This document shows positions 4,091-64,000 of a stretch of 64,000 nucleotides of DNA, piece after piece (positions within the stretch are counted from its first letter, which is position 1; the number at the start of each line of letters is the position of its first letter). Both the position numbers and the translations under genes were made by a program. Origin of the DNA: Candidatus Kapaibacterium sp. (lineage in GTDB: Bacteria; Patescibacteriota; Patescibacteriia; UBA9934); the NCBI GenBank assembly GCA_044350705.1, contig JBILHA010000001.1:244242-308241 (forward strand), read 5' to 3'. The notes under the pieces are model-generated. The model was given only the letters and a program-made list of their open reading frames with translations, was not told the origin of the DNA and did not search any database.

Positions 4091-5272
4091 ATGTCTGCAA
4101 AGAAAAAAGTACTCTTAGGTATGAGCGGGGGCGTTGACTCGAGTGTCAGCGCAGTTTTGCTTTTGGAGCAGGGGTACGAGGTTATTGGGGGGTTCATGAA
4201 GAATTGGAGTGGGGGGACGGATGGGATGGATGATGACGGATTAGACGGATCAAAAGACTGCGGATGGAAAAATGAGCGACGTGATGCAATGCGCGTTGCT
4301 GCGCAGTTAGGCATTCCGTTTCATACGTTTGATTTTGAAAAAGAGTATCGAGAGCGAGTGTACGAATACATGATCGCCGAGTATAAGGCGGGGCGAACGC
4401 CGAATCCTGATGTGCTTTGCAATAAGTACATGAAATTTGATTTGTTTTTGAAAGCCGCCGATGAACTTCAGTGTGATTTTGTAGCGACTGGTCATTACGC
4501 ACGAAAAACCGTAGATGAACGAGGGATTGCGCATTTACTCCCAGGGGTAGATACAAATAAAGATCAAAGTTATTTCTTGTGTCAGTTGACACAGTCACAG
4601 ATTGCTCGCGCATTGTTTCCGATTGGACACCTGCAGAAAAGCGAGGTGCGTGACATTGCCCGAAAGCATGATTTGTTTGTTGCAGAGAAGAAGGATAGCC
4701 AAGGTATTTGTTTTGTAGGCGCGGTTGCGATGAAAGATTTTCTTGGTGCGCGTATTGCGGAACATCCAGGAAATATTGTGACTACTGATGGAAAAGTGCT
4801 TGGGCAGCATTGCGGATTTGAGTTTTATACGATCGGGCAGCGAGAGGGGTTGGGTGTGGGAGGGAGAGGGAGTGATCCGGCGAGTAGCCGGACGGGAGGG
4901 AGTAAGGGGAGTAGAGGGAGTACGGAACCGCTTTATGTCGTAGAGCGTCGGCCTGAAACAAATGAAATTGTTGTTGCGGTGGGAGATGATGATCCGGCGC
5001 TGTATAAGTCGGTGCTGCGTGCCGGGAATATTACCGAGACGTACACGGGCGCACTTGCTACTTACGAAGGAAAGAACATTTCTGCGCGTATTCGCTATCG
5101 TCAGCCGCTCGCTGAATGCGGATTTGTGATACTTTCTTCGATGCAGGGAGGAGATGCAAAAGACGCGGTGGTTGAAGTGACCTTTTCCTCGCCTCAGCGA
5201 GCGATAGCGCCTGGACAATTTATTGCGTTTTATTACGGAGAAGAGTTGTTAGGCTCGGGGATTATTTCTTAA
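4091..5272 (+). CDS. mnmA: tRNA-specific 2-thiouridylase MnmA
   Basis: PP-loop SGGVDSS and conserved MnmA core (NPDVLCNKYMKFDLFL…ATGHYAR). Carries an in-frame G/S-rich insertion (…[18 protein letters not shown]…) in the linker before the C-terminal domain. Confidence 0.85.
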   Translation: MSAKKKVLLGMSGGVDSSVSAVLLLEQGYEVIGGFMKNWSGGTDGMDDDGLDGSKDCGWKNERRDAMRVAAQLGIPFHTFDFEKEYRERVYEYMIAEYKAGRTPNPDVLCNKYMKFDLFLKAADELQCDFVATGHYARKTVDERGIAHLLPGVDTNKDQSYFLCQLTQSQIARALFPIGHLQKSEVRDIARKHDLFVAEKKDSQGICFVGAVAMKDFLGARIAEHPGNIVTTDGKVLGQHCGFEFYTIGQREGLGVGGRGSDPASSRTGGSKGSRGSTEPLYVVERRPETNEIVVAVGDDDPALYKSVLRAGNITETYTGALATYEGKNISARIRYRQPLAECGFVILSSMQGGDAKDAVVEVTFSSPQRAIAPGQFIAFYYGEELLGSGIIS

Positions 5273-8622: not shown

Positions 8623-8697
8623 GCGCTGGTAGCTCAGTGGTAGAGCAAAGGCCTTTTAAGCCTGTGGTCGTGGGTTCGATCCCCACTCGGCGCACCA
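8623..8697 (+). tRNA. tRNA-Lys (anticodon TTT)
   Basis: Manual cloverleaf: acceptor GCGCTGG/TCGGCGC, D-arm GCTC-AGTGGTA-GAGC, anticodon loop cTTTTaa, T-arm GTGGG-TTCGATC-CCCAC, encoded CCA. Confidence 0.85.
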
Positions 8698-8935
8698 TAA
8701 AAATCTGACAGCATGTCTGTCGGGTTTTTATTTTATCTAAAATAATCGAACCCACGACGGTTCGATGGTCAAGCGAGTGAGTGGAGCTATAAAGCTGAAT
8801 CTATGCGCTTTATAGCTCCCGAACGAGCACCGACTCAATCCGGAGGCGTAGCCGAGATCCCCGCTCGGCGCACCACAAAATCCCGATCGCAGGTCTGTCG
8901 GGTTTTTGTTTTTGAAACAGGTATAATCTTGGTAT

Positions 8936-17599: not shown

Positions 17600-17735
17600 T
17601 AAGTCTCGAATTCCTCTTCATTTCGAGGCAGTTTGGACCTACAGAGGGAGGATTGCTGATCCGTACCTAAATGTACGGAGAGGCAACCGGACTGATAGGG
17701 GCTCCAAAATGACCGAAATGAAGAGGAATTCGCTT
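17600..17735 (+). ncRNA. Candidate structured RNA / long hairpin leader immediately 5' of tRNA-Gln
   Basis: Perfect 19-bp long-range helix (CGAATTCCTCTTCATTTCG ... CGAAATGAAGAGGAATTCG) closing a ~95-nt interior with a central hairpin CCGTAC-CTAAAT-GTACGG. The 3' strand of the helix ends 1 nt before tRNA-Gln. Same architecture as the element at 15667-15793. Confidence 0.4.
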
Positions 17736-22062: not shown

Positions 22063-22151
22063 TGAGATGTCGGTTTAAGAGAAAAGGGAGGCATGATTGT
22101 GGAGAGGATTTTGGGTAATGGCGGGTTATTTATTTTAGTGTGAAAAACATG

Positions 22152-22232
22152 ACGTAAGTATACTTTACATTTTGCATTTCACGACGCAATAAACATTGGC
22201 GTTTTTAAAATGCATGTAAAGTATACTTACGT
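22152..22232. promoter_or_regulatory. Perfect 19-bp inverted repeat pair (ACGTAAGTATACTTTACAT / ATGTAAAGTATACTTACGT) separated by 43 nt; candidate operator upstream of the XRE regulator
   Basis: Read directly from the sequence. Lies between the XRE start (22062, minus strand) and the stop of the upstream minus-strand gene (22284). Confidence 0.5.
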
Positions 22233-22283
22233 TAGTTTTTTGACATAAAAAAGAAGAAGCATTTTCGTGCTTCCTCTCATTTC

Positions 22284-26156: not shown

Positions 26157-28736
26157 ATGCGGGATGAAATTGTTATCAAAGGTGCTCGTGAGCACAATCT
26201 CAAAAATATTTCCCTTTCCATTCCTCGAAATAAGCTCGTATGTTTTACGGGACTTTCAGGAAGTGGAAAATCATCGCTTGCGTTCGATACGATTTTCGCG
26301 GAGGGGCAGCGACGTTACGTAGAATCTTTGTCGGCTTATGCGCGACAGTTTTTGGGGAACATGCAAAAGCCTGATGTCGATGAGATTGAAGGTCTTTCTC
26401 CTGCGATTTCTATTGATCAAAAGGCACATGGTCGTAACCCACGTTCCACCATTGCTACGATTACAGAAATTTACGACTACCTCCGTGTGCTTTATGCGCG
26501 TATTGGAAAGCCGCACTGTCCGATTTGTGGGAAGCCTATTGAACGTTTGTCAGTTGATGAGATGGTTGATGTCGTGATGCGGGGATTGAAAGAGGGGAGT
26601 AATCCGGCGAGTAGCCGGACGGGAGGGAGTGAAGGGAGTGGGGGGAGTGGAAGACTCCGACGAAAGGAGGAGTCTCAAGGGAGAGGTGAAGAGGTTTTGG
26701 TTCTTGCGCCGGTTGTTCGAGGAAGAAAGGGGGAGTATTACCAGTTGCTTTATGATTTGTATAATGCGGGGTATGCAAAGGTGCGGGTTGATGGAGAAAT
26801 GCATCGCTTGAGTGAGAAGATTGAGCTCTCTCGTTACAAGCAGCACACGATTGAAGTGGTGATTGATACCATTCCTGTGGTGTTGTTGTCTTCAAAAGAT
26901 GGTCGTCAGCGTTTGGCTGATGCGCTTGAGCAGGCAATTGCGAAAGGAGAGGGAGTTGCACAGGTGGTGACGCCGTACGAAGATCGGACGCTTTCTTCAA
27001 AATTTAGTTGTGCGGATGATGGATTCTCTTTCCCAGAAATTGAACCTCGTTTGTTCTCTTTTAATAGTCCGTATGGGGCATGCCCTGCGTGTTCTGGGTT
27101 GGGAACGGTAGATTTATTCTCCGACAAGCCGTGTGAGGTGTGCCATGGAGATCGCTTACGCAAAGAGGCGTTGCATGTTTTGATTGAAGGGAAGTCCATT
27201 GTTGATGTGGTGAGGTTTTCTGTTGATGAAGCGGTACATTTTTTCTTGTCGATTGAGCTTTCTGACCGCGATAAAGAGATTGCGGCAACGATTCTTAAAG
27301 AAGTAGAAAATCGTCTTGGCTTCATGCTTGATGTAGGTCTTCATTATCTAACGCTCAATCGAACTGCGGGAACCTTGTCTGGAGGTGAGGCGCAGCGTAT
27401 TCGTTTGGCATCTCAGATTGGCTCACATCTTGTAGGAGCGATGTATGTACTTGATGAACCAACGATTGGATTGCATCAGCGAGATAACGAAAAGCTTATT
27501 CGTACGCTTGAAGAGCTTCGTGATCTTGGCAATACGGTTCTTGTGGTTGAGCATGATGAGGATACGATTCGTCGTTCTGATTACATGGTAGAGATTGGTC
27601 CTGGCGCGGGTATTCATGGTGGACATGTTGTGGCGGCAGGAACAACGCCTGAAGTGTTTAAAGATAAAAATTCTCGGACGGGGGCATATCTTCGAGGAGA
27701 TGTAGAAATTGAGGTTCCCAAAGAACGTCGGAATCGCGATGCGGGAGCGATAAAAGTAAAAGGTGCTACGGGAAATAACCTCAAGAATGTTGATGTTGAT
27801 TTTCCGCTGAAGAAATTTGTGTGTGTTACCGGGGTTTCGGGAAGTGGAAAGTCGACGCTTGCGCATGACACGATGTATGTAGCGGTTGCGAAAAAGCTGT
27901 ATGGCAGTTCTGAACAACCTGCGCCGCATCAGGCTATTCTTGGTATTGAATATATTGATAAAGCGATTCTTATCGATCAGTCAGCTATTGGTCGAACGCC
28001 TCGTTCTAATCCTGCTACCTATACGGGTGCATGGGGTCCGATTCGCGAACTCTTTACGCAAACGGAAGAAGCGCGTGTACGCGGTTATAAACCAGGACGT
28101 TTTAGCTTTAACGTTGCGGGAGGTCGTTGTGAACACTGTGAGGGGCATGGCGTGATTGCGATCGAGATGCATTTTTTGCCGACCGTGTATGTAACGTGTG
28201 AGGTATGTAAAGGTAAGCGCTTTAATCGTGAAACCCTTGAGGTGACCTTCAAAGAGAAAAATATTTCTCAGGTGCTTGACATGACGATTGAAGAGGCTGC
28301 TGAATTTTTTGTAGACATTCCTGAAATTCATGTAAAGCTCAGGGCGCTGAATGAGGTAGGATTGGCGTATATTACGTTAGGACAAAGTGCGACAACTCTC
28401 TCGGGAGGTGAGGCGCAGCGTGTAAAACTTGCTTCCGAGCTTTCCAAGCGTCAGACGGGAAAGACGCTGTATCTCCTTGATGAACCTACTACCGGTTTGC
28501 ATTTTGATGATGTGAAGAAACTTTTGGAAGTGCTCCATCGTTTAGTTGATAAGGGAAATTCAATGGTGATCATTGAGCATAACTTAGACGTGATTAAAAC
28601 TGCTGACTGGATTATTGATATGGGTCCCGAAGGAGGAACAGAGGGCGGGACAGTAGTAGTTACCGGTACTCCTGAAGATGTTGCGCGTCATGCGAAGAGT
28701 CATACAGGTCAATATCTCAGAAAATATTTGAAATAG
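26157..28736 (+). CDS. uvrA: Excinuclease ABC subunit A (UvrA), short form with an in-frame G/S-rich insertion
   Basis: Two ABC modules ([14 protein letters not shown] / [14 protein letters not shown]), two LSGGE signatures and zinc-finger cysteines. About 35-aa insertion [31 protein letters not shown] where E. coli UvrA has about 8 aa. Confidence 0.9.
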
Positions 28737-30155: not shown

Positions 30156-30191
30156 TAAAAAATCTGCGCGTTTTTCCGCGCAGATTTTTTT
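30156..30191. terminator. Bidirectional rho-independent terminator between uvrC and the convergent helicase gene
   Basis: ATCTGCGCG-TTTTTC-CGCGCAGAT hairpin flanked by an A-run and a T-run. Confidence 0.75.
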
Positions 30192-32004
30192 AGAGAAGAG
30201 ATGAAGCAAGGGTTTTTAGAGGCACTTTTCCGAAGATATAGAGCTCCTCAATGGCACGAGTAAGCGCCACGTAGAGTAAATCTTTTCTTATTTTTTTCAG
30301 ATTTTTTTCTAGTTCCTGTGGGATGTTTTTCTCAGAGATGAGCATTTCTGCTGCTATTCCTACGAGGAATACTCGATCGAATTCTACGCCTTGCGCCTGC
30401 TGTGCGGTCATGATATGGAAATGGGGAATATGTGTGAGTTCTTTTTTGAAGATCTCCAGGTATTCTTCTGAAAATCCGATGATTCCTGTCTGGAGTTTAT
30501 CATCAGGCTCTCGTGATATTTCTTTGATGCGTTGGAGTTCTGATGTTTCGTTTTCGTGATGTTCTTCTTGGACTGCTTGGCCGTCGCGCATTCCGTCGGG
30601 AATGCTCGTCGCAAAGCCGAGGTCGTTGATGAATGAAAGAATGCGCTTCGTGCTCCGATAGACTTTCTCAAGTTCAACTTTTCTTTCAGGGGTGAATGAT
30701 TCGCTTGCTTCTTCCCAGGTGGTAAGCGTTCCTAAAAGTATTTGTTGGCGAAGGTCTCCTACGTAGAGCATGGCGTTCGTATCTTTGCTGATACATGACC
30801 GTAGGATGTTTATTTGTTCTGGAAGGTAGTTTTGAACTTCGTCAATAACGATGAACGCGTATGAAAGGGGGATTTTTCGTTTTTTTCTCATGACTTCGAA
30901 TTCTTTTTTCCTCTCAAAATATTCTTCCTCTTTTTTTAATTTTCCTTCTTGTTTTATGAGTCCATTGAGGAGGAGGGTGATATCGAAACGGTCAAATGTT
31001 TTTGTTCGCTTTTGTTCCTCAAAAAGAAGCATGTCTTCTGGGGAGAAGAAGGGGGCATATGCTTCCCCAAGCGCAGCGAAAGGGTTTTTGTGATTGCAGG
31101 AATGTATCTTGCGAAGTGCGAGAAGTTTATGGTGTTCGTGCGTATCGATGGCGATGTTGGTTCCGTTTTGTCGTCTTACGAAACTTGCATTATTGATGTG
31201 GAGTTGTTCGCATGCCCAAGCAAAAAAAGTCGTAACATTTACTTGGTGAATGCCGAGTTCGGGGAGAAGTTTTGAGAAGTATGCTCGTGTGTTTTCGTCC
31301 TGGACGAAAACGATAATGTTGTCATCTGAAAATTGCGCTGCATGTTCGGGTGATTGTAGGAGGTAGGCAATGCGATGGAATGCGAGGGTGGTTTTTCCTG
31401 ATCCGGCGGGTCCTGAAATGAGAAAAGATCCTTGCGCTTCAGCGCGAATAACGTCATCTTGTGCTCGTTCCATGCGTGCAATAATTTCCGGGAGCATGAA
31501 ATCGGTTTTTCTTTTGGAGAGTTGTTCTTGATAGACGAGGGTTCGTCCCTCTTTTGCCGTTTCGCTGGTCATGAAGCGGATTTCTCCGCCCGCGATCATG
31601 AATTGATCTTTGCGGCTTAAAGTTCCGGACCACGTTCCCTGATCTGGGATTGTGTAGGTAATGGGTCCGAGGTCTGCGAAGCGTAGCCGTGCTGCGGGCG
31701 AAGTCCAGGAAAAAATTCCTTCTGAGATGAGGGGGAATTTTGCAAAGTGGATGGTTTGTATTTTTCCGTCGGTATGCGTGATATCTCCGCGGAAAAAGAA
31801 GGGGCTTGGGAAGAGATGATGTAATTGATCGAGTCGCTCATGAAAATGCGTGAGGAGCTTTTGTTGGACAAATTGATCGGTTTGTCCGGGTTGTTCGTAT
31901 CGCTCGATTGTTTTTTCGGTCGTTTGTATTTCCTGCACGATACTTTTTCGTGCGTTTTCCACGTTTGATTTTGCCTCCCTGAGAAGAATTTCTTTCTTGG
32001 ACAT
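30190..32004 (-). CDS. SF1 DNA helicase, HelD (helicase IV)-like member of the UvrD family
   Basis: Walker A SGPAGSGKTT, motif VI LLYVALTRAIEELYI. The N-terminal domain resembles HelD rather than UvrD/PcrA. Confidence 0.65.
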   Translation of the reverse strand: MSKKEILLREAKSNVENARKSIVQEIQTTEKTIERYEQPGQTDQFVQQKLLTHFHERLDQLHHLFPSPFFFRGDITHTDGKIQTIHFAKFPLISEGIFSWTSPAARLRFADLGPITYTIPDQGTWSGTLSRKDQFMIAGGEIRFMTSETAKEGRTLVYQEQLSKRKTDFMLPEIIARMERAQDDVIRAEAQGSFLISGPAGSGKTTLAFHRIAYLLQSPEHAAQFSDDNIIVFVQDENTRAYFSKLLPELGIHQVNVTTFFAWACEQLHINNASFVRRQNGTNIAIDTHEHHKLLALRKIHSCNHKNPFAALGEAYAPFFSPEDMLLFEEQKRTKTFDRFDITLLLNGLIKQEGKLKKEEEYFERKKEFEVMRKKRKIPLSYAFIVIDEVQNYLPEQINILRSCISKDTNAMLYVGDLRQQILLGTLTTWEEASESFTPERKVELEKVYRSTKRILSFINDLGFATSIPDGMRDGQAVQEEHHENETSELQRIKEISREPDDKLQTGIIGFSEEYLEIFKKELTHIPHFHIMTAQQAQGVEFDRVFLVGIAAEMLISEKNIPQELEKNLKKIRKDLLYVALTRAIEELYIFGKVPLKTLASSLL

Positions 32005-61091: not shown

Positions 61092-62030
61092 ATGATCCCC
61101 CCTCCTCTTCAAAGATCTTTGCTCCGTGGTGAAATTGCTGATTATCGATTGTATTGCTCGCTTGAACGGCATGCCGGTCCTGAATTTCAGAAGATGCTTC
61201 GTGGATTTATTGCTACCGAAGAAGCACATATCGCATTTTGGAAAAAACGTTTTGCGCTTGATGTCGTTTCTTTGCGTTTTGAGGATCGGTTTCGTAATGC
61301 GGTTATTTTGTTTTTTGTTCGATGCTTGGGTGATAGGGCGGGATATGTTTTTTTGGAGGCGGTAGAGACGCATGGAATAAAAAAATATTTGGATTTATGG
61401 GCGGGTGTTGAAGATCGCGAAGTTCGAGAGGGATTGCGCTCGATTCTTACTGATGAATTGCTTCACGAAGATGAGGCTGCAACGGGAGGGAAGAGGACGG
61501 TGCGTGCTGACGTTGTACGGAATGCATTTTTAGGCTTTAACGATGGCTCGGTAGAAATTTTAGGTGCGGTTACTGGGCTTGTGGCGGCACTTGGGCGTCC
61601 GGATCTTGTTTTTCTTTCGGCGCTCACGGTTTCTGTGGCGGGAAGTCTTTCCATGGCAGCAGGAGCATTCCTTGCTGCTCACGGAGAGCGTGAAATGCGC
61701 ATTCTCGAACAGCAGAAAGATCTCTTTTTGGGAAATGAAGGCGCGCATGCTGATGACATAGGGTCGCCACTTGGTTCGGCGGCTATTGTTGGCATTGGAT
61801 ATTTGTTTGGCGCCGCAGTGCCGGTATTGCCGTTTGCGTTTGGCGCAGCAACTCCGGTATGGTCAATTTTCTTTTCCGGTGCGCTTATCCTCATTGTTTC
61901 GGCATGTCTCGCTTTTTTGTCGGGCATGAGCATACGTCGTCGTCTTTTTTTGAACGGCATGATTATTGCCGTGACCGTTTGCATTTCTTTGGTTATCGGG
62001 ATGCTTCTTGACCGTTTTTTGGTTGTGTAA
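61092..62030 (+). CDS. VIT1/CCC1-family Fe/Mn transporter with an N-terminal ferritin-like (rubrerythrin-type) domain
   Basis: Ferritin-like EE…H motifs N-terminally, a five-TM VIT family C-terminal half. Confidence 0.65.
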   Translation: MIPPPLQRSLLRGEIADYRLYCSLERHAGPEFQKMLRGFIATEEAHIAFWKKRFALDVVSLRFEDRFRNAVILFFVRCLGDRAGYVFLEAVETHGIKKYLDLWAGVEDREVREGLRSILTDELLHEDEAATGGKRTVRADVVRNAFLGFNDGSVEILGAVTGLVAALGRPDLVFLSALTVSVAGSLSMAAGAFLAAHGEREMRILEQQKDLFLGNEGAHADDIGSPLGSAAIVGIGYLFGAAVPVLPFAFGAATPVWSIFFSGALILIVSACLAFLSGMSIRRRLFLNGMIIAVTVCISLVIGMLLDRFLVV

Positions 62031-62050
62031 GGCTAAAAACAGCGCAGCTT

Positions 62051-62079
62051 GCTTTCTCCTTGCTTCTTTTAGAAAAATA
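62051..62079 (+). promoter_or_regulatory. Candidate sigma70 promoter (TTGCTT, 17-nt spacer, TATAGT) giving a ~170-nt 5' UTR for the DEAD-box helicase gene
   Basis: Hexamers and spacing read from the sequence. Confidence 0.4.
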
Positions 62080-62250
62080 AGCTATAGTAAGCGTAATCTT
62101 GGGACTTCGCGAGAATCTTCTCAAGTACCCGTTTTCTGCAAACCCCGACGTCTTGGATGCGTGTGGTGCCGGAAACGGACCATATTCATCGACGTTTTTT
62201 GTTTTGTCATTTTCAATGATCGTGAGCAAAGGACGTTCTAGTCTTTTTTT

Positions 62251-63615
62251 ATGACGTCTTCTTCGGAAACTACGTTTGGCATGCTTGGCATGCATCCGTC
62301 ACTTCTTACTCATTTAACGGCCATGGGTTTTGTTACTCCCACTCCTATTCAGGCACAGGCTATTCCTGTTGCGCTTACGGGAGTTGATGTCCTCGGCATC
62401 GCTCAAACTGGAACGGGTAAAACGCTTGCGTTTGCGCTTCCCATGATTGAGCGCCTGGCAAAGACCAAGGGTCGTGGCCTTGTCCTTCTTCCTACTCGCG
62501 AACTTGCGGTACAGGTGGAAGAAACCATGCGTAAAGTTGCATCAAAATTCGGTGCGCGTACCGCGCTTCTTATTGGTGGTGTTGCAATGGGTCCTCAAGA
62601 AAAACTTTTGCGTACTAACCCGCATATTATTGTTGCAACTCCTGGTCGCTTAATTGATCATCTTTCACAAAAAACGGTAAAGCTCGATCAGATCGAAGTA
62701 CTGGTTTTCGATGAAGCAGATCGCATGCTTGATATGGGATTCGCTCCTCAGATCGAACGAATTCTTACAACCGTTCCTCCTCAGCGTCAGACCATGCTCT
62801 TTTCTGCAACCATGCCGGTGGAGATTGCGCGTATTGCAAGTAAATATATGCGTCAGCCGGTACGTATTGAAGTAGCTCCCCCTGGACTTACCGTTGATAA
62901 AATTGCACAAGAGATTATTGTTACTGAAAAGCAGAATAAACAGGCCATGCTCGAACAAGTACTTAAAGAGCATGCGGGTACTATTATTGTTTTTTCTCGC
63001 ACCAAGCATGGTGCAAGCCGTATTGCTCGTAACTTAAACGCTGCAGGAATTTCTGCTGCAGAAATGCACTCAGATCGTTCTCAGTCTCAACGCCAGCGTG
63101 CGCTTGATGGATTCAAGCGTGGGCAACACCGTGTGCTTGTCGCGACGGATATTGCTGCGCGTGGTATTGATGTTTCGAATATTACCGTTGTCGTAAACTT
63201 TGATCTTCCTGATAATCCTGAAGATTACGTACATCGTATTGGTCGTACGGGTCGTGCAGGACGTGATGGATTGGCTATTACCTTCGTAGAGCCTCAGCAA
63301 GCACGTGATGTTCAGGTGATCGAACGCCTTATTAAAAAGACGCTTCCTGAACGTGCAGGAACGCCCGTGCTTTCACGAGGTTTCTCATCATCAGCTTCTC
63401 GAGGAGGTTTCCAGAAGCGTGGAGGATTCTCTCGTGGCCCTCGTCATAATGATCGCTTTGGTCGTCGTGATAGTGGTGTCGGTCGTCCGTCACGTGGCTT
63501 TGCTTCTTTTGATGGACGTCCTACGCGCACGCAGCAGCGCTCTGCTCCTGTTGCTCCTTCCTCTTCTGCAGCTTCTGGTGGAGCGCGTCCACGTCGTGTG
63601 CATCTTGATGACTAA
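62251..63615 (+). CDS. DEAD-box ATP-dependent RNA helicase with an RGG/Arg-rich C-terminal tail
   Basis: Q-motif, AQTGTGKT, PTRELA, DEAD, SAT and HRIGRTGRAG motifs. Confidence 0.9.
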   Translation: MTSSSETTFGMLGMHPSLLTHLTAMGFVTPTPIQAQAIPVALTGVDVLGIAQTGTGKTLAFALPMIERLAKTKGRGLVLLPTRELAVQVEETMRKVASKFGARTALLIGGVAMGPQEKLLRTNPHIIVATPGRLIDHLSQKTVKLDQIEVLVFDEADRMLDMGFAPQIERILTTVPPQRQTMLFSATMPVEIARIASKYMRQPVRIEVAPPGLTVDKIAQEIIVTEKQNKQAMLEQVLKEHAGTIIVFSRTKHGASRIARNLNAAGISAAEMHSDRSQSQRQRALDGFKRGQHRVLVATDIAARGIDVSNITVVVNFDLPDNPEDYVHRIGRTGRAGRDGLAITFVEPQQARDVQVIERLIKKTLPERAGTPVLSRGFSSSASRGGFQKRGGFSRGPRHNDRFGRRDSGVGRPSRGFASFDGRPTRTQQRSAPVAPSSSAASGGARPRRVHLDD

Positions 63616-63695
63616 GAATAACCAAAAACGACATGAAAGTGTCGTTTTTGGTTATTGCAGTTTTGTTTCATTTTGATACCATTTTGGTATTTTGT

Positions 63696-64000
63696 ATGCA
63701 GACTCTTCTTGAAAAAGCTACTCGTCATGTCGCGGATGTTATTCGTGACGCGATCAAGCATTCTTCCGGCGCAAAGGCTTTGGTGGTTTTTGATCGTGAT
63801 TCCGGATTATCCTCGCTTCTTGCAGATGCGTATCAGTATGCTCTTCCGCAAGCGCAGATGATGGACTTTCGCGCTACTACTCCTGTAGAGGTACGGCAAA
63901 CTATTGATGCGCTTTCCCCCGGTGACTTAGTGGTTCTCGTGCAGTCGACGAGTTTTCGCTTAAATGAATTTCGTTTTCGTTTAGAGCTTTTTAACCGCAG
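63696..64000 (+). CDS. Hypothetical protein, 5' part only (runs off the window)
   Basis: ORF open to the window end; no motif recognised. Confidence 0.3.
   Translation, partial: MQTLLEKATRHVADVIRDAIKHSSGAKALVVFDRDSGLSSLLADAYQYALPQAQMMDFRATTPVEVRQTIDALSPGDLVVLVQSTSFRLNEFRFRLELFNR

Follow-up and report, generated by a model that had tools for sequence, protein, structure and literature searches.

In a 64,000-nt stretch of the genome of Candidatus Kapaibacterium sp. (Patescibacteriota; assembly GCA_044350705.1, contig JBILHA010000001.1, positions 244,242 to 308,241 of the forward strand; hereafter the window), two unrelated genes, mnmA and uvrA, carry the same composite repeat in frame. The repeat, 54 nt long, consists of an outer array with a 9-nt period, (GGGAGTNNN)n, and an inner 21-nt palindromic unit, E1 (TCCGGC-GAGTA-GCCGGA-CGGG). 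Only these 21 nt behave as a discrete insertion, and by parsimony E1 was gained recently. Tentatively, we favor a history in which E1 entered one array and was then copied into the second by a non-reciprocal, array-guided event. The features in the window on which the argument rests are the following.

4091..5272, + strand: mnmA (tRNA 2-thiouridine synthase), host of copy 1; translation, Pfam tRNA_Me_trans domains, solved MnmA structures (E = 3e-97)
4868..4921, + strand: composite repeat copy 1, array with nested E1, MnmA residues 260-277; repeat search, alignment, Tandem Repeats Finder (TRF)
4876..4896, + strand: E1 copy 1; stem 4876-4881 with 4887-4892, loop 4882-4886, tail 4893-4896; -7.4 kcal/mol, z = -3.6
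26157..28736, + strand: uvrA (excinuclease ABC subunit A), host of copy 2; translation, Pfam UvrA_inter/ABC_tran, solved UvrA structures (E = 0)
26595..26648, + strand: composite repeat copy 2, array with nested E1; shuffle test, alignment, repeat search, TRF
26603..26623, + strand: E1 copy 2; stem 26603-26608 with 26614-26619
26652..26675, + strand: hairpin AGACTCC-N10-GGAGTCT, older and weaker than E1, outside the repeat but within the insertion-prone uvrA loop that holds it; -5.5 kcal/mol, z = -1.7, not significant

An exact search of the window places the 29-mer ATCCGGCGAGTAGCCGGACGGGAGGGAGT at two positions only, 4875-4903 and 26602-26630, each time on the + strand; none of 100 dinucleotide-preserving shuffles contained a match. 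The mnmA sequence that the initial annotation had quoted at 4866-4915 is present, and the 29-nt core that it reported as shared is identical in the two genes, although the uvrA coordinates given for it (26601-26629) were one base low. Extended into the flanks, the match becomes a direct repeat of 54 nt (4868-4921 versus 26595-26648) with 49 of 54 positions identical (91%) by alignment and repeat search. Translated in one common frame, the two copies read GS[D/N]PASSRTGGS[K/E]GS[R/G]GS. The hairpin had been described as CCGGC-GAGTA-GCCGG; it exists, with a stem one pair longer (TCCGGC/GCCGGA), giving a 6-bp stem and a 5-nt loop. As DNA, E1 folds at -7.0 to -7.4 kcal/mol (z = -2.6 to -3.6; for the hairpin TCCGGC-GAGTA-GCCGGA, -7.4 kcal/mol and z = -3.3 to -3.6), and at 21 nt it is a small stable stem-loop in the size range of repetitive extragenic palindromic (REP) elements (20-40 bp). 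Array alleles free of E1 fold at 0 to -0.8 kcal/mol and have no structure. By inspection, five of the six reading frames across E1 are free of stops and the GGGAGT arrays fit the G3+N1-7 quadruplex pattern. E1 adds seven residues to its host protein. No Rfam family matched at the mnmA or the uvrA site.

Empty sites for both genes are found in close relatives. The relative L005 is 94-97% identical to window positions 17.8-36.7 kb (18.8 kb aligned), and its uvrA holds an intact E1-free array, GGGAGTAA|GGGGAGTGAAGGGAGTGGGGGGAGT, where the window reads GGGAGTAA[TCCGGCGAGTAGCCGGACGGG]AGGGAGTGAA.... Across these 18.8 kb, the genes called intact in both genomes contain no indel of more than 3 nt other than E1 in uvrA. 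The same empty uvrA allele recurs in an independent NCBI protein, P0245 (NBS69276.1). For mnmA, removal of E1 leaves GGGAGTGA|AGGGAGTAAGGGGAGT, of which 24 nt across the junction are identical to the array of the relative L006, and the DNA flanking that array is ~93% identical to the window. Since 21-nt empty sites exist in both uvrA and mnmA, E1 is a discrete insertion that took the same register in the two genes, GGGAGT-RA^R-GGGAGT, with no target-site duplication. The order of events in uvrA follows from the outgroups: L010 lacks the array, L005 has the array without E1, and the window has the array with E1. We considered whether E1 arose within mnmA itself, out of the GGCGAGTAC variant unit present in L006, and dropped the idea, since the 21-nt removal gives a perfect 24-nt junction match.

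The initial annotation had proposed a mobile or gene-converted intragenic mini-element of ~45 nt. The E1-free alleles of mnmA (L006) and uvrA (L005, P0245) support an insertion and make it smaller: the discrete unit is 21 nt, and the GGGAGT repeats around it form a separate, older layer. They also show that the added residues are not common to all relatives, which would have indicated ancestral sequence.

The window is 100% identical to L004, L007 and L008 wherever these overlap it, the mnmA copy included. Identical mnmA copies come from independent assemblies, namely an NCBI metagenome-assembled genome (MAG), JGI samples including 3300042340, and the Logan assemblies of SRR27421204 and SRR27428177. 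Exact protein matches are encoded on a contig of MAG GCA_041445565.1 and in JGI sample 3300059473, and the UvrA sequence is matched exactly by proteins from at least three contigs (JGI and NCBI). Because independent assemblies match the window fully, an assembly artefact, which the initial annotation had named as a possible refutation, is excluded.

As far as seen, within the DNA examined, E1 is strain-specific and confined to arrays. The portion of the genome examined amounts to 82.5 kb, made up of the window with 8.9 kb upstream and 9.6 kb downstream, or ~8% of a genome of ~1 Mb; at up to five mismatches it contains no E1 copy beyond those in the mnmA and uvrA arrays. Exact scans with the 22-mer CCGGCGAGTAGCCGGACGGGAG covered 185,579 GTDB species-representative genomes and JGI metagenome contigs, collections without the source genome. 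All that they returned was three chance matches without array context, one in an Agrobacterium genome and two in metagenome contigs, each in high-GC DNA. The E1 21-mer had no match in IMG/VR. A peptide query joining all open E1 frames gave 179 word candidates, none at E <= 10; both known hosts were also missed, which makes this query uninformative on copy number. For E1, the evidence on the mobility proposed earlier supports an insertion and does not extend to a mobile element family: the search for more copies found none in the 82.5 kb or in the public collections covered.

The outer layer has a wider distribution. TRF detects period-9 arrays at 4897-4922 in mnmA and at 26622-26651 in uvrA. 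A third array, free of E1, lies in the same genome ~3 kb upstream of the window, in a gene for an RluA-like pseudouridine synthase (L007:13820-13852), and encodes EGSRGSEGSKGSEGS. In L006, E1-free arrays occupy the orthologous rluA and mnmA loops, and a second mnmA loop carries the array in another reading frame, as GGVRGVGGVGGVG. The array unit thus has four separate loci and is translated in two frames. The units are arranged head-to-tail, their period is a multiple of 3, and their number varies among close relatives, as in coding tandem repeats: mnmA has four units in the window (E1 removed) versus six in L006, uvrA has four in the window versus none in L010, and rluA has five in both L007 and L006, with unlike spacers. 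Outside the arrays, just 19% of Gly residues are encoded by GGG and 11% of Ser residues by AGT, and of 53 Gly-Ser dipeptides 4 are spelled GGGAGT; inside the arrays every unit is GGGAGT. These non-preferred codons, together with the other frame in which L006 translates such DNA, mark the arrays as repeats at the DNA level rather than Gly-Ser linkers that were selected independently. The outgroup uvrA of L010, whose UvrA shares 92% amino acid identity, has no array and just a proto-repeat, GGAGATAAGGGAAGA, which is plausible as a seed for slippage.

Several further observations concern the arrays and their unit. The N-terminal variable loop of mnmA, at 4214-4250 of the window, holds a different 9-nt tandem repeat, four units of GGGACGGAT encoding GGTDGMDDDGLDG; in L006 this repeat is replaced by the GGGAGTNNN array in the other frame. 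Among IMG/VR loci, (GGGAGTNNN)x4 occurs in 42 viral contigs (L020-L061), in L040 three times in tandem; these viral occurrences are probably collagen-like Gly-X-Y repeats of structural genes. All 2-kb bins of the window have a positive GC skew, mostly +0.08 to +0.31 and lowest in the final bin (62001-64000, +0.015), and the long open reading frames (ORFs) of the window are almost all on the + strand. In all GGGAGT arrays the G-rich strand is the coding strand and the presumed leading strand.

Both inserts lie in variable, disordered loops, in agreement with the earlier proposal that the sequence is tolerated as a linker. In an alignment of 30 sequences, the MnmA insert site (GLGVGG...EPLYVV) is empty in every sequence at <=70% identity, and in closer relatives the same site is filled by inserts that vary in length and sequence. 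The AlphaFold2 model of MnmA has a per-residue confidence (pLDDT) below 50 over residues 248-276, with the insert at residues 260-277, and solved MnmA structures have a shorter, unaligned segment at this site. A total of 8000 MnmA homologues were retrieved, and those bearing a name belong to the Patescibacteria group or Candidatus Uhrbacteria. In UvrA, residues 148-176 (29 residues, insert included) have no counterpart in the solved structure 9gxk, and the insert loop is hypervariable across 120 homologues. As expected of in-frame selfish DNA, the ORFs are intact, the inserts occupy loop positions, and insertion-free orthologues exist. Since the loops are unstructured and five of the six E1 frames are open, the seven extra residues are tolerated. 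The second hairpin of the uvrA loop, at 26652-26675, appears in L010 as AGAATCC...GGATTCT, which amounts to one compensatory pair change, and possibly derives from an earlier palindromic insert. Elsewhere in the same protein (859 residues), ~115 residues are missing, roughly 305-422 of 9gxk, the query passing from 318 to 320 while the chain passes from 305 to 422; the absent residues may be the insertion domain.

We retrieved 240 MnmA and UvrA homologues and found that their variable loops have four further modules of 7-11 identical residues in common. Two of these, E2 and E3, are confirmed in DNA. The features in these related genomes are the following.

L013:5176-5208, L013:9703-9736, L015:6858-6891 and L015:11384-11412, both orientations (GCA_964414795.1): E2, GTAG-GGGCGGGTTT-A-AAACCCGCCC-GTAC
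L015:11093-11671 (GCA_964414795.1): RAYT-like Y1 transposase gene (RAYT, REP-associated tyrosine transposase), 192 residues, between uvrA and uvrC
L016:10124-10156, L016:10979-11005 (minus strand) and L017:10433-10464 (JGI 3300014205): E3, CGTC-G-GGGTCGGC-TCCTAT-GCCGACCC

E2 is a GTAG-tagged perfect palindrome with a 10-bp stem (-14 kcal/mol, z = -5.1), present in four copies in 37 kb, in frame in a DUF8128 gene, mnmA, uvrA and the RAYT-like gene. Because the palindrome reads alike both ways, it always encodes AGLKPA. E3 is CGTC-tagged, has an 8-bp stem and is present in three copies in 43 kb. Two of these lie in mnmA in opposite orientations, the inverted one in the second mnmA loop, and the third is in the same uvrA loop; E3 is identical over 32 nt between mnmA and uvrA. 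Flanking homology is absent around both E2 and E3, which marks them as discrete insertions, and they are found in varied contexts, in both orientations, at about one per 9-14 kb. With Pfam Y1_Tnp the RAYT-like gene reaches 26.7 bits and so passes the cut-off (23); with NCBIfam REP_Tyr_transpos it reaches 54.9 bits (E = 8.5e-15), under the model cut-off of 80. Its ORF is interrupted in frame by E2 and a nearby half-copy, and on visual inspection its HxH and Tyr motifs seem to be undamaged. A tblastn search with this protein gave no hit to a RAYT-like gene across the 82.5 kb of the E1 genome, window and flanks together. Local alignment of E1 with E2 and E3 was no better than shuffled or hairpin-preserving controls, and on this account we claim no homology between them. 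At the peptide level only, KGGSASGG and APSDSSM are common to MnmA and UvrA variable loops (P0021/P0154/P0155 and P0070/P0198, respectively), PLxEGESEGE occurs twice within the MnmA P0050, and HPREGGDP occurs in three MnmAs.

The nearest described precedent for such elements is the tagged REPs. According to passages of PMC3733652 (Di Nocera, De Gregorio and Rocco 2013), GTAG/CGTC-tagged REPs are short (20-40 bp), GC-rich stem-loops, named for an unpaired GTAG or CGTC tetranucleotide at one stem end; they occur in more than 80 species of eight phyla, and some lie in frame in known protein genes, where they are presumed neutral in flexible loops. The same passages list DNA-repair genes, uvrA among them, as recurrent hosts of intragenic REPs, count the R. 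conorii elements RPE-4 and RPE-6 as CGTC REPs, and define CGTC families 1-4 by an 8-9 bp stem with complementary A/T in the first two positions, a 4-5 nt loop and a 3-nt tail (consensus CCA). Measured against this description, E1 is likewise an in-frame, loop-located and presumably neutral palindromic insert with uvrA as a host, and in E2 and E3 the GTAG and CGTC tags adjoin the stems as in tagged REPs. Unlike the CGTC families so defined, E1 has a stem of 6 bp that is all G/C but for a terminal T-A pair, and its tail on the CGTC strand is TCA rather than CCA; the 5-nt loop fits. The minus strand of E1 reads CC-CGTC-CGGC-TACTC-GCCG-GA, with the TC of CGTC paired to GA in the stem, and the plus-strand GTAG spans the boundary of loop and stem; either tetranucleotide could be present by chance. 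REPs number tens to thousands of dispersed copies per genome; for E1, two copies are known, both within arrays, from the 82.5 kb. Unlike intragenic REPs, E1 is nested in a coding tandem array. Its host belongs to the Patescibacteria, which are not among the phyla that these passages of PMC3733652 name for tagged REPs. Because stem length, first stem positions and tail depart from the CGTC-family definitions, and copy number and a transposase link are not established, we do not file E1 as a REP member.

These comparisons bear on how the same 21 nt came to lie in two genes. In the history that we favor, three or more housekeeping genes of this lineage (mnmA, uvrA and the RluA-like gene) carry (GGGAGTNNN)3-6 arrays in disordered surface loops, and the arrays gain and lose units over time. 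E1 would have entered one of these arrays once, possibly by a REP-like insertion, and would then have been copied to a second array 21.7 kb away. The copying would be a short-tract, non-reciprocal event, by template switching or ectopic gene conversion, with the GGGAGT repeats on either side as its guides. We infer both the copying mechanism and its direction, and give this history a probability of roughly 0.45. Array-guided copying is proposed to account for the register, orientation and frame that the two E1 copies share. It is favored by the restriction of E1 to arrays, in two strain-specific copies, as opposed to the varied contexts of E2 and E3. In addition, the base after E1 in uvrA is A, as in mnmA, where the empty allele has G in a lineage ~5% diverged; because AAA and AAG are synonymous at this Lys site, the matching base is weak support for conversion. 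A number of observations weigh against copying between arrays. The homology that flanks E1 consists of perfect blocks of 6-7 nt between variable 3-nt spacers, far below what RecA-type conversion usually needs, and the sites are 21.7 kb apart. Nor is it obvious that arrays resemble one another more within a genome than between orthologues, and there is no clear concerted evolution. Copying also leaves the first source of E1 unexplained, and relatives hold discrete palindromes inserted without flanking homology, so that a transposition-like route exists in the clade. Finally, the confinement of E1 to arrays refers to just the ~8% of the genome that was examined.

Such a route is the basis of the strongest competing explanation, in which E1 would be a miniature, non-autonomous REP-like element moved as single-stranded DNA by a Y1 (RAYT or IS200-IS605-type) transposase encoded elsewhere, with independent insertions 3' of GGGAGT-RA and survival under selection of only those in disordered loops. 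We regard this as possible but somewhat doubtful. The anatomy of E1 is REP-like (21 nt, GC-rich 6-bp stem, 5-nt loop, GACG, or CGTC on the other strand, at the stem foot), its indels are clean and without target-site duplication, and the unmistakable palindromes of related genomes entered the same loops, one E2 copy even lying inside a RAYT-like gene; intragenic REPs, uvrA included, are on record in the passages of PMC3733652. What this explanation has to accommodate is that both E1 copies of the 82.5 kb are in arrays, in one orientation and register, that no RAYT-like gene was found there, that the 22-mer had chance high-GC matches only in GTDB representatives and JGI metagenome contigs and the 21-mer none in IMG/VR, that CGTC overlaps the E1 stem instead of forming an unpaired tag on a stem as long as those of the described CGTC families, and that similarity to E2 or E3 is not significant. 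It is improbable that the hairpin or its peptide is instead a selected functional module of both proteins, be it an mRNA or DNA structure for translation or replication, a quadruplex with a hairpin, or a binding or modification peptide. Frame and peptide do match in the two genes, the arrays fit the G3+N1-7 pattern and the hairpin is significantly stabler than shuffled sequence, but close relatives lack E1 in both genes, the low-confidence, disordered loops that hold the insert differ widely in length and sequence within the clade, Rfam has no match, and L006 reads the same array DNA in another frame. Still less likely are Gly/Ser-rich runs that evolved independently with similar codons, or were inherited. 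Both loops are Gly-rich, and the uvrA proto-repeat of L010 could let slippage build GGGAGT arrays locally; an identical, non-repetitive 21-nt palindrome, matched in 0 of 100 shuffles and absent from the empty sites, is beyond slippage, the array codons are non-preferred, and the empty sites already rule out ancestry for the 21-nt unit. The initial annotation was thus right to set aside convergent low complexity. That chimeric reads joined the two loci was only an a priori possibility, as for any MAG, and is rendered negligible by the identical mnmA copy in independent assemblies and by the exact UvrA on at least three contigs.

Other known systems resemble E1 and its arrays in part. Rickettsia palindromic elements (RPEs) were reportedly described by Ogata and colleagues in 2000. 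The classical RPE-1 is about 100-150 bp long, encodes tens of residues and is present in dozens of copies. Like RPEs, E1 is palindromic selfish DNA in frame in essential genes of a reduced genome, where the proteins gain a surface peptide and keep their function. Unlike RPE-1, it has 21 nt, seven residues and two known copies, a size outside that of these elements, and there is no sequence relationship. The RPE work (Ogata et al. 2000) is cited in passages of PMC1166351 and PMC1458961. The resemblance to REP/RAYT systems (REPtrons; IS200/IS605 Y1 family) lies in the hairpin, the lack of a target-site duplication and the clean presence or absence; a RAYT-like gene is found in the related E2-bearing genome and none in the 82.5 kb of the E1 genome. 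In Pseudomonas, the mobile unit is a REP doublet, or REPIN. E1 differs in being a singlet, and the RAYT-like gene of the relative departs from the flanking arrangement of REP/RAYT systems by having E2 inside its ORF. The outer layer is like coding tandem repeats made by slippage in its 9-nt period, its frame, its varying unit number and its loop location, and unlike them in that the unit recurs at four loci, in two frames and in non-preferred codons, with a nested palindrome beyond slippage. With short-tract ectopic gene conversion or templated mutagenesis, the repeat would share the non-reciprocal transfer of a variant between dispersed repeat copies in the same register and orientation; unlike the usual case, the flanking homology comes in 6-7 nt blocks, and no conversion tract was evident beyond one synonymous flank base. 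A full-text search of the literature library used returned no prior report of in-frame palindromes in bacteria of the candidate phyla radiation (CPR), an absence that is not proof of novelty.

E1 is therefore a small, CPR-hosted variant of the known phenomenon of palindromic repeats inside genes, and not a new kind of system. Set beside the precedent as the passages of PMC3733652 present it, the differences are the host phylum, the tiny size, the nesting in a coding tandem array, and two genes that are hit repeatedly by lineage-specific units. The phenomenon of intragenic REPs and RPEs is extended to the Patescibacteria and to a very small unit (21 nt, seven residues), and the bias toward DNA-repair genes such as uvrA (PMC3733652, as far as those passages go) is seen again. 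The filled and empty alleles show at base-pair resolution how essential proteins of a streamlined CPR genome gain loop residues, and the source of these residues is selfish or slippage-derived DNA and not adaptive protein evolution. Such allele pairs are natural markers for telling transposition from repeat-guided conversion. Inserts of this kind make proteins look more diverged than they otherwise would, and in CPR genomes they can disrupt an assembly or mislead the alignment of orthologues.

As a lead, the wider pattern among relatives is of more interest than E1 itself. It may be, although we hold the picture only tentatively, that Uhrbacteria-like Patescibacteria, which have almost no intergenic space, keep lineage-specific families of REP-like palindromes of 21-32 nt, mainly within essential genes and there in disordered loops. 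The same mnmA and uvrA loops would then be recolonised, at least sometimes in the presence of a RAYT-like transposase that itself carries the element, and E1 with its arrays would be one local instance. The recolonisation reading rests on three genomes verified in DNA (the window, GCA_964414795.1 and JGI 3300014205) and on two MnmA/UvrA pairs that share peptides.

Four other observations were made in the window. A tRNA-Lys(TTT) gene lies at 8623-8697. Its last ~20 nt, CCA included, recur 178 nt downstream together with a similar terminator-like hairpin and T-run, at 8856-8912. The pair of tRNA gene and partial copy is also present in L006, and the partial copy looks like an att-type duplication or the relic of a lost tRNA gene. 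A UvrD-like helicase gene at 30190-32004 (minus strand) is intact in the window, and in the 94%-identical L005:12986-14706 is split by indels of 1-2 nt into five short ORFs, either as a pseudogene or through an assembly error. Upstream of an AftA-like gene, an AT-rich intergenic inverted repeat with 45-nt arms (22126-22258) is conserved in L005. A perfect 19-nt inverted repeat at 17607-17732, its arms 88 nt apart, lies immediately upstream of tRNA-Gln.

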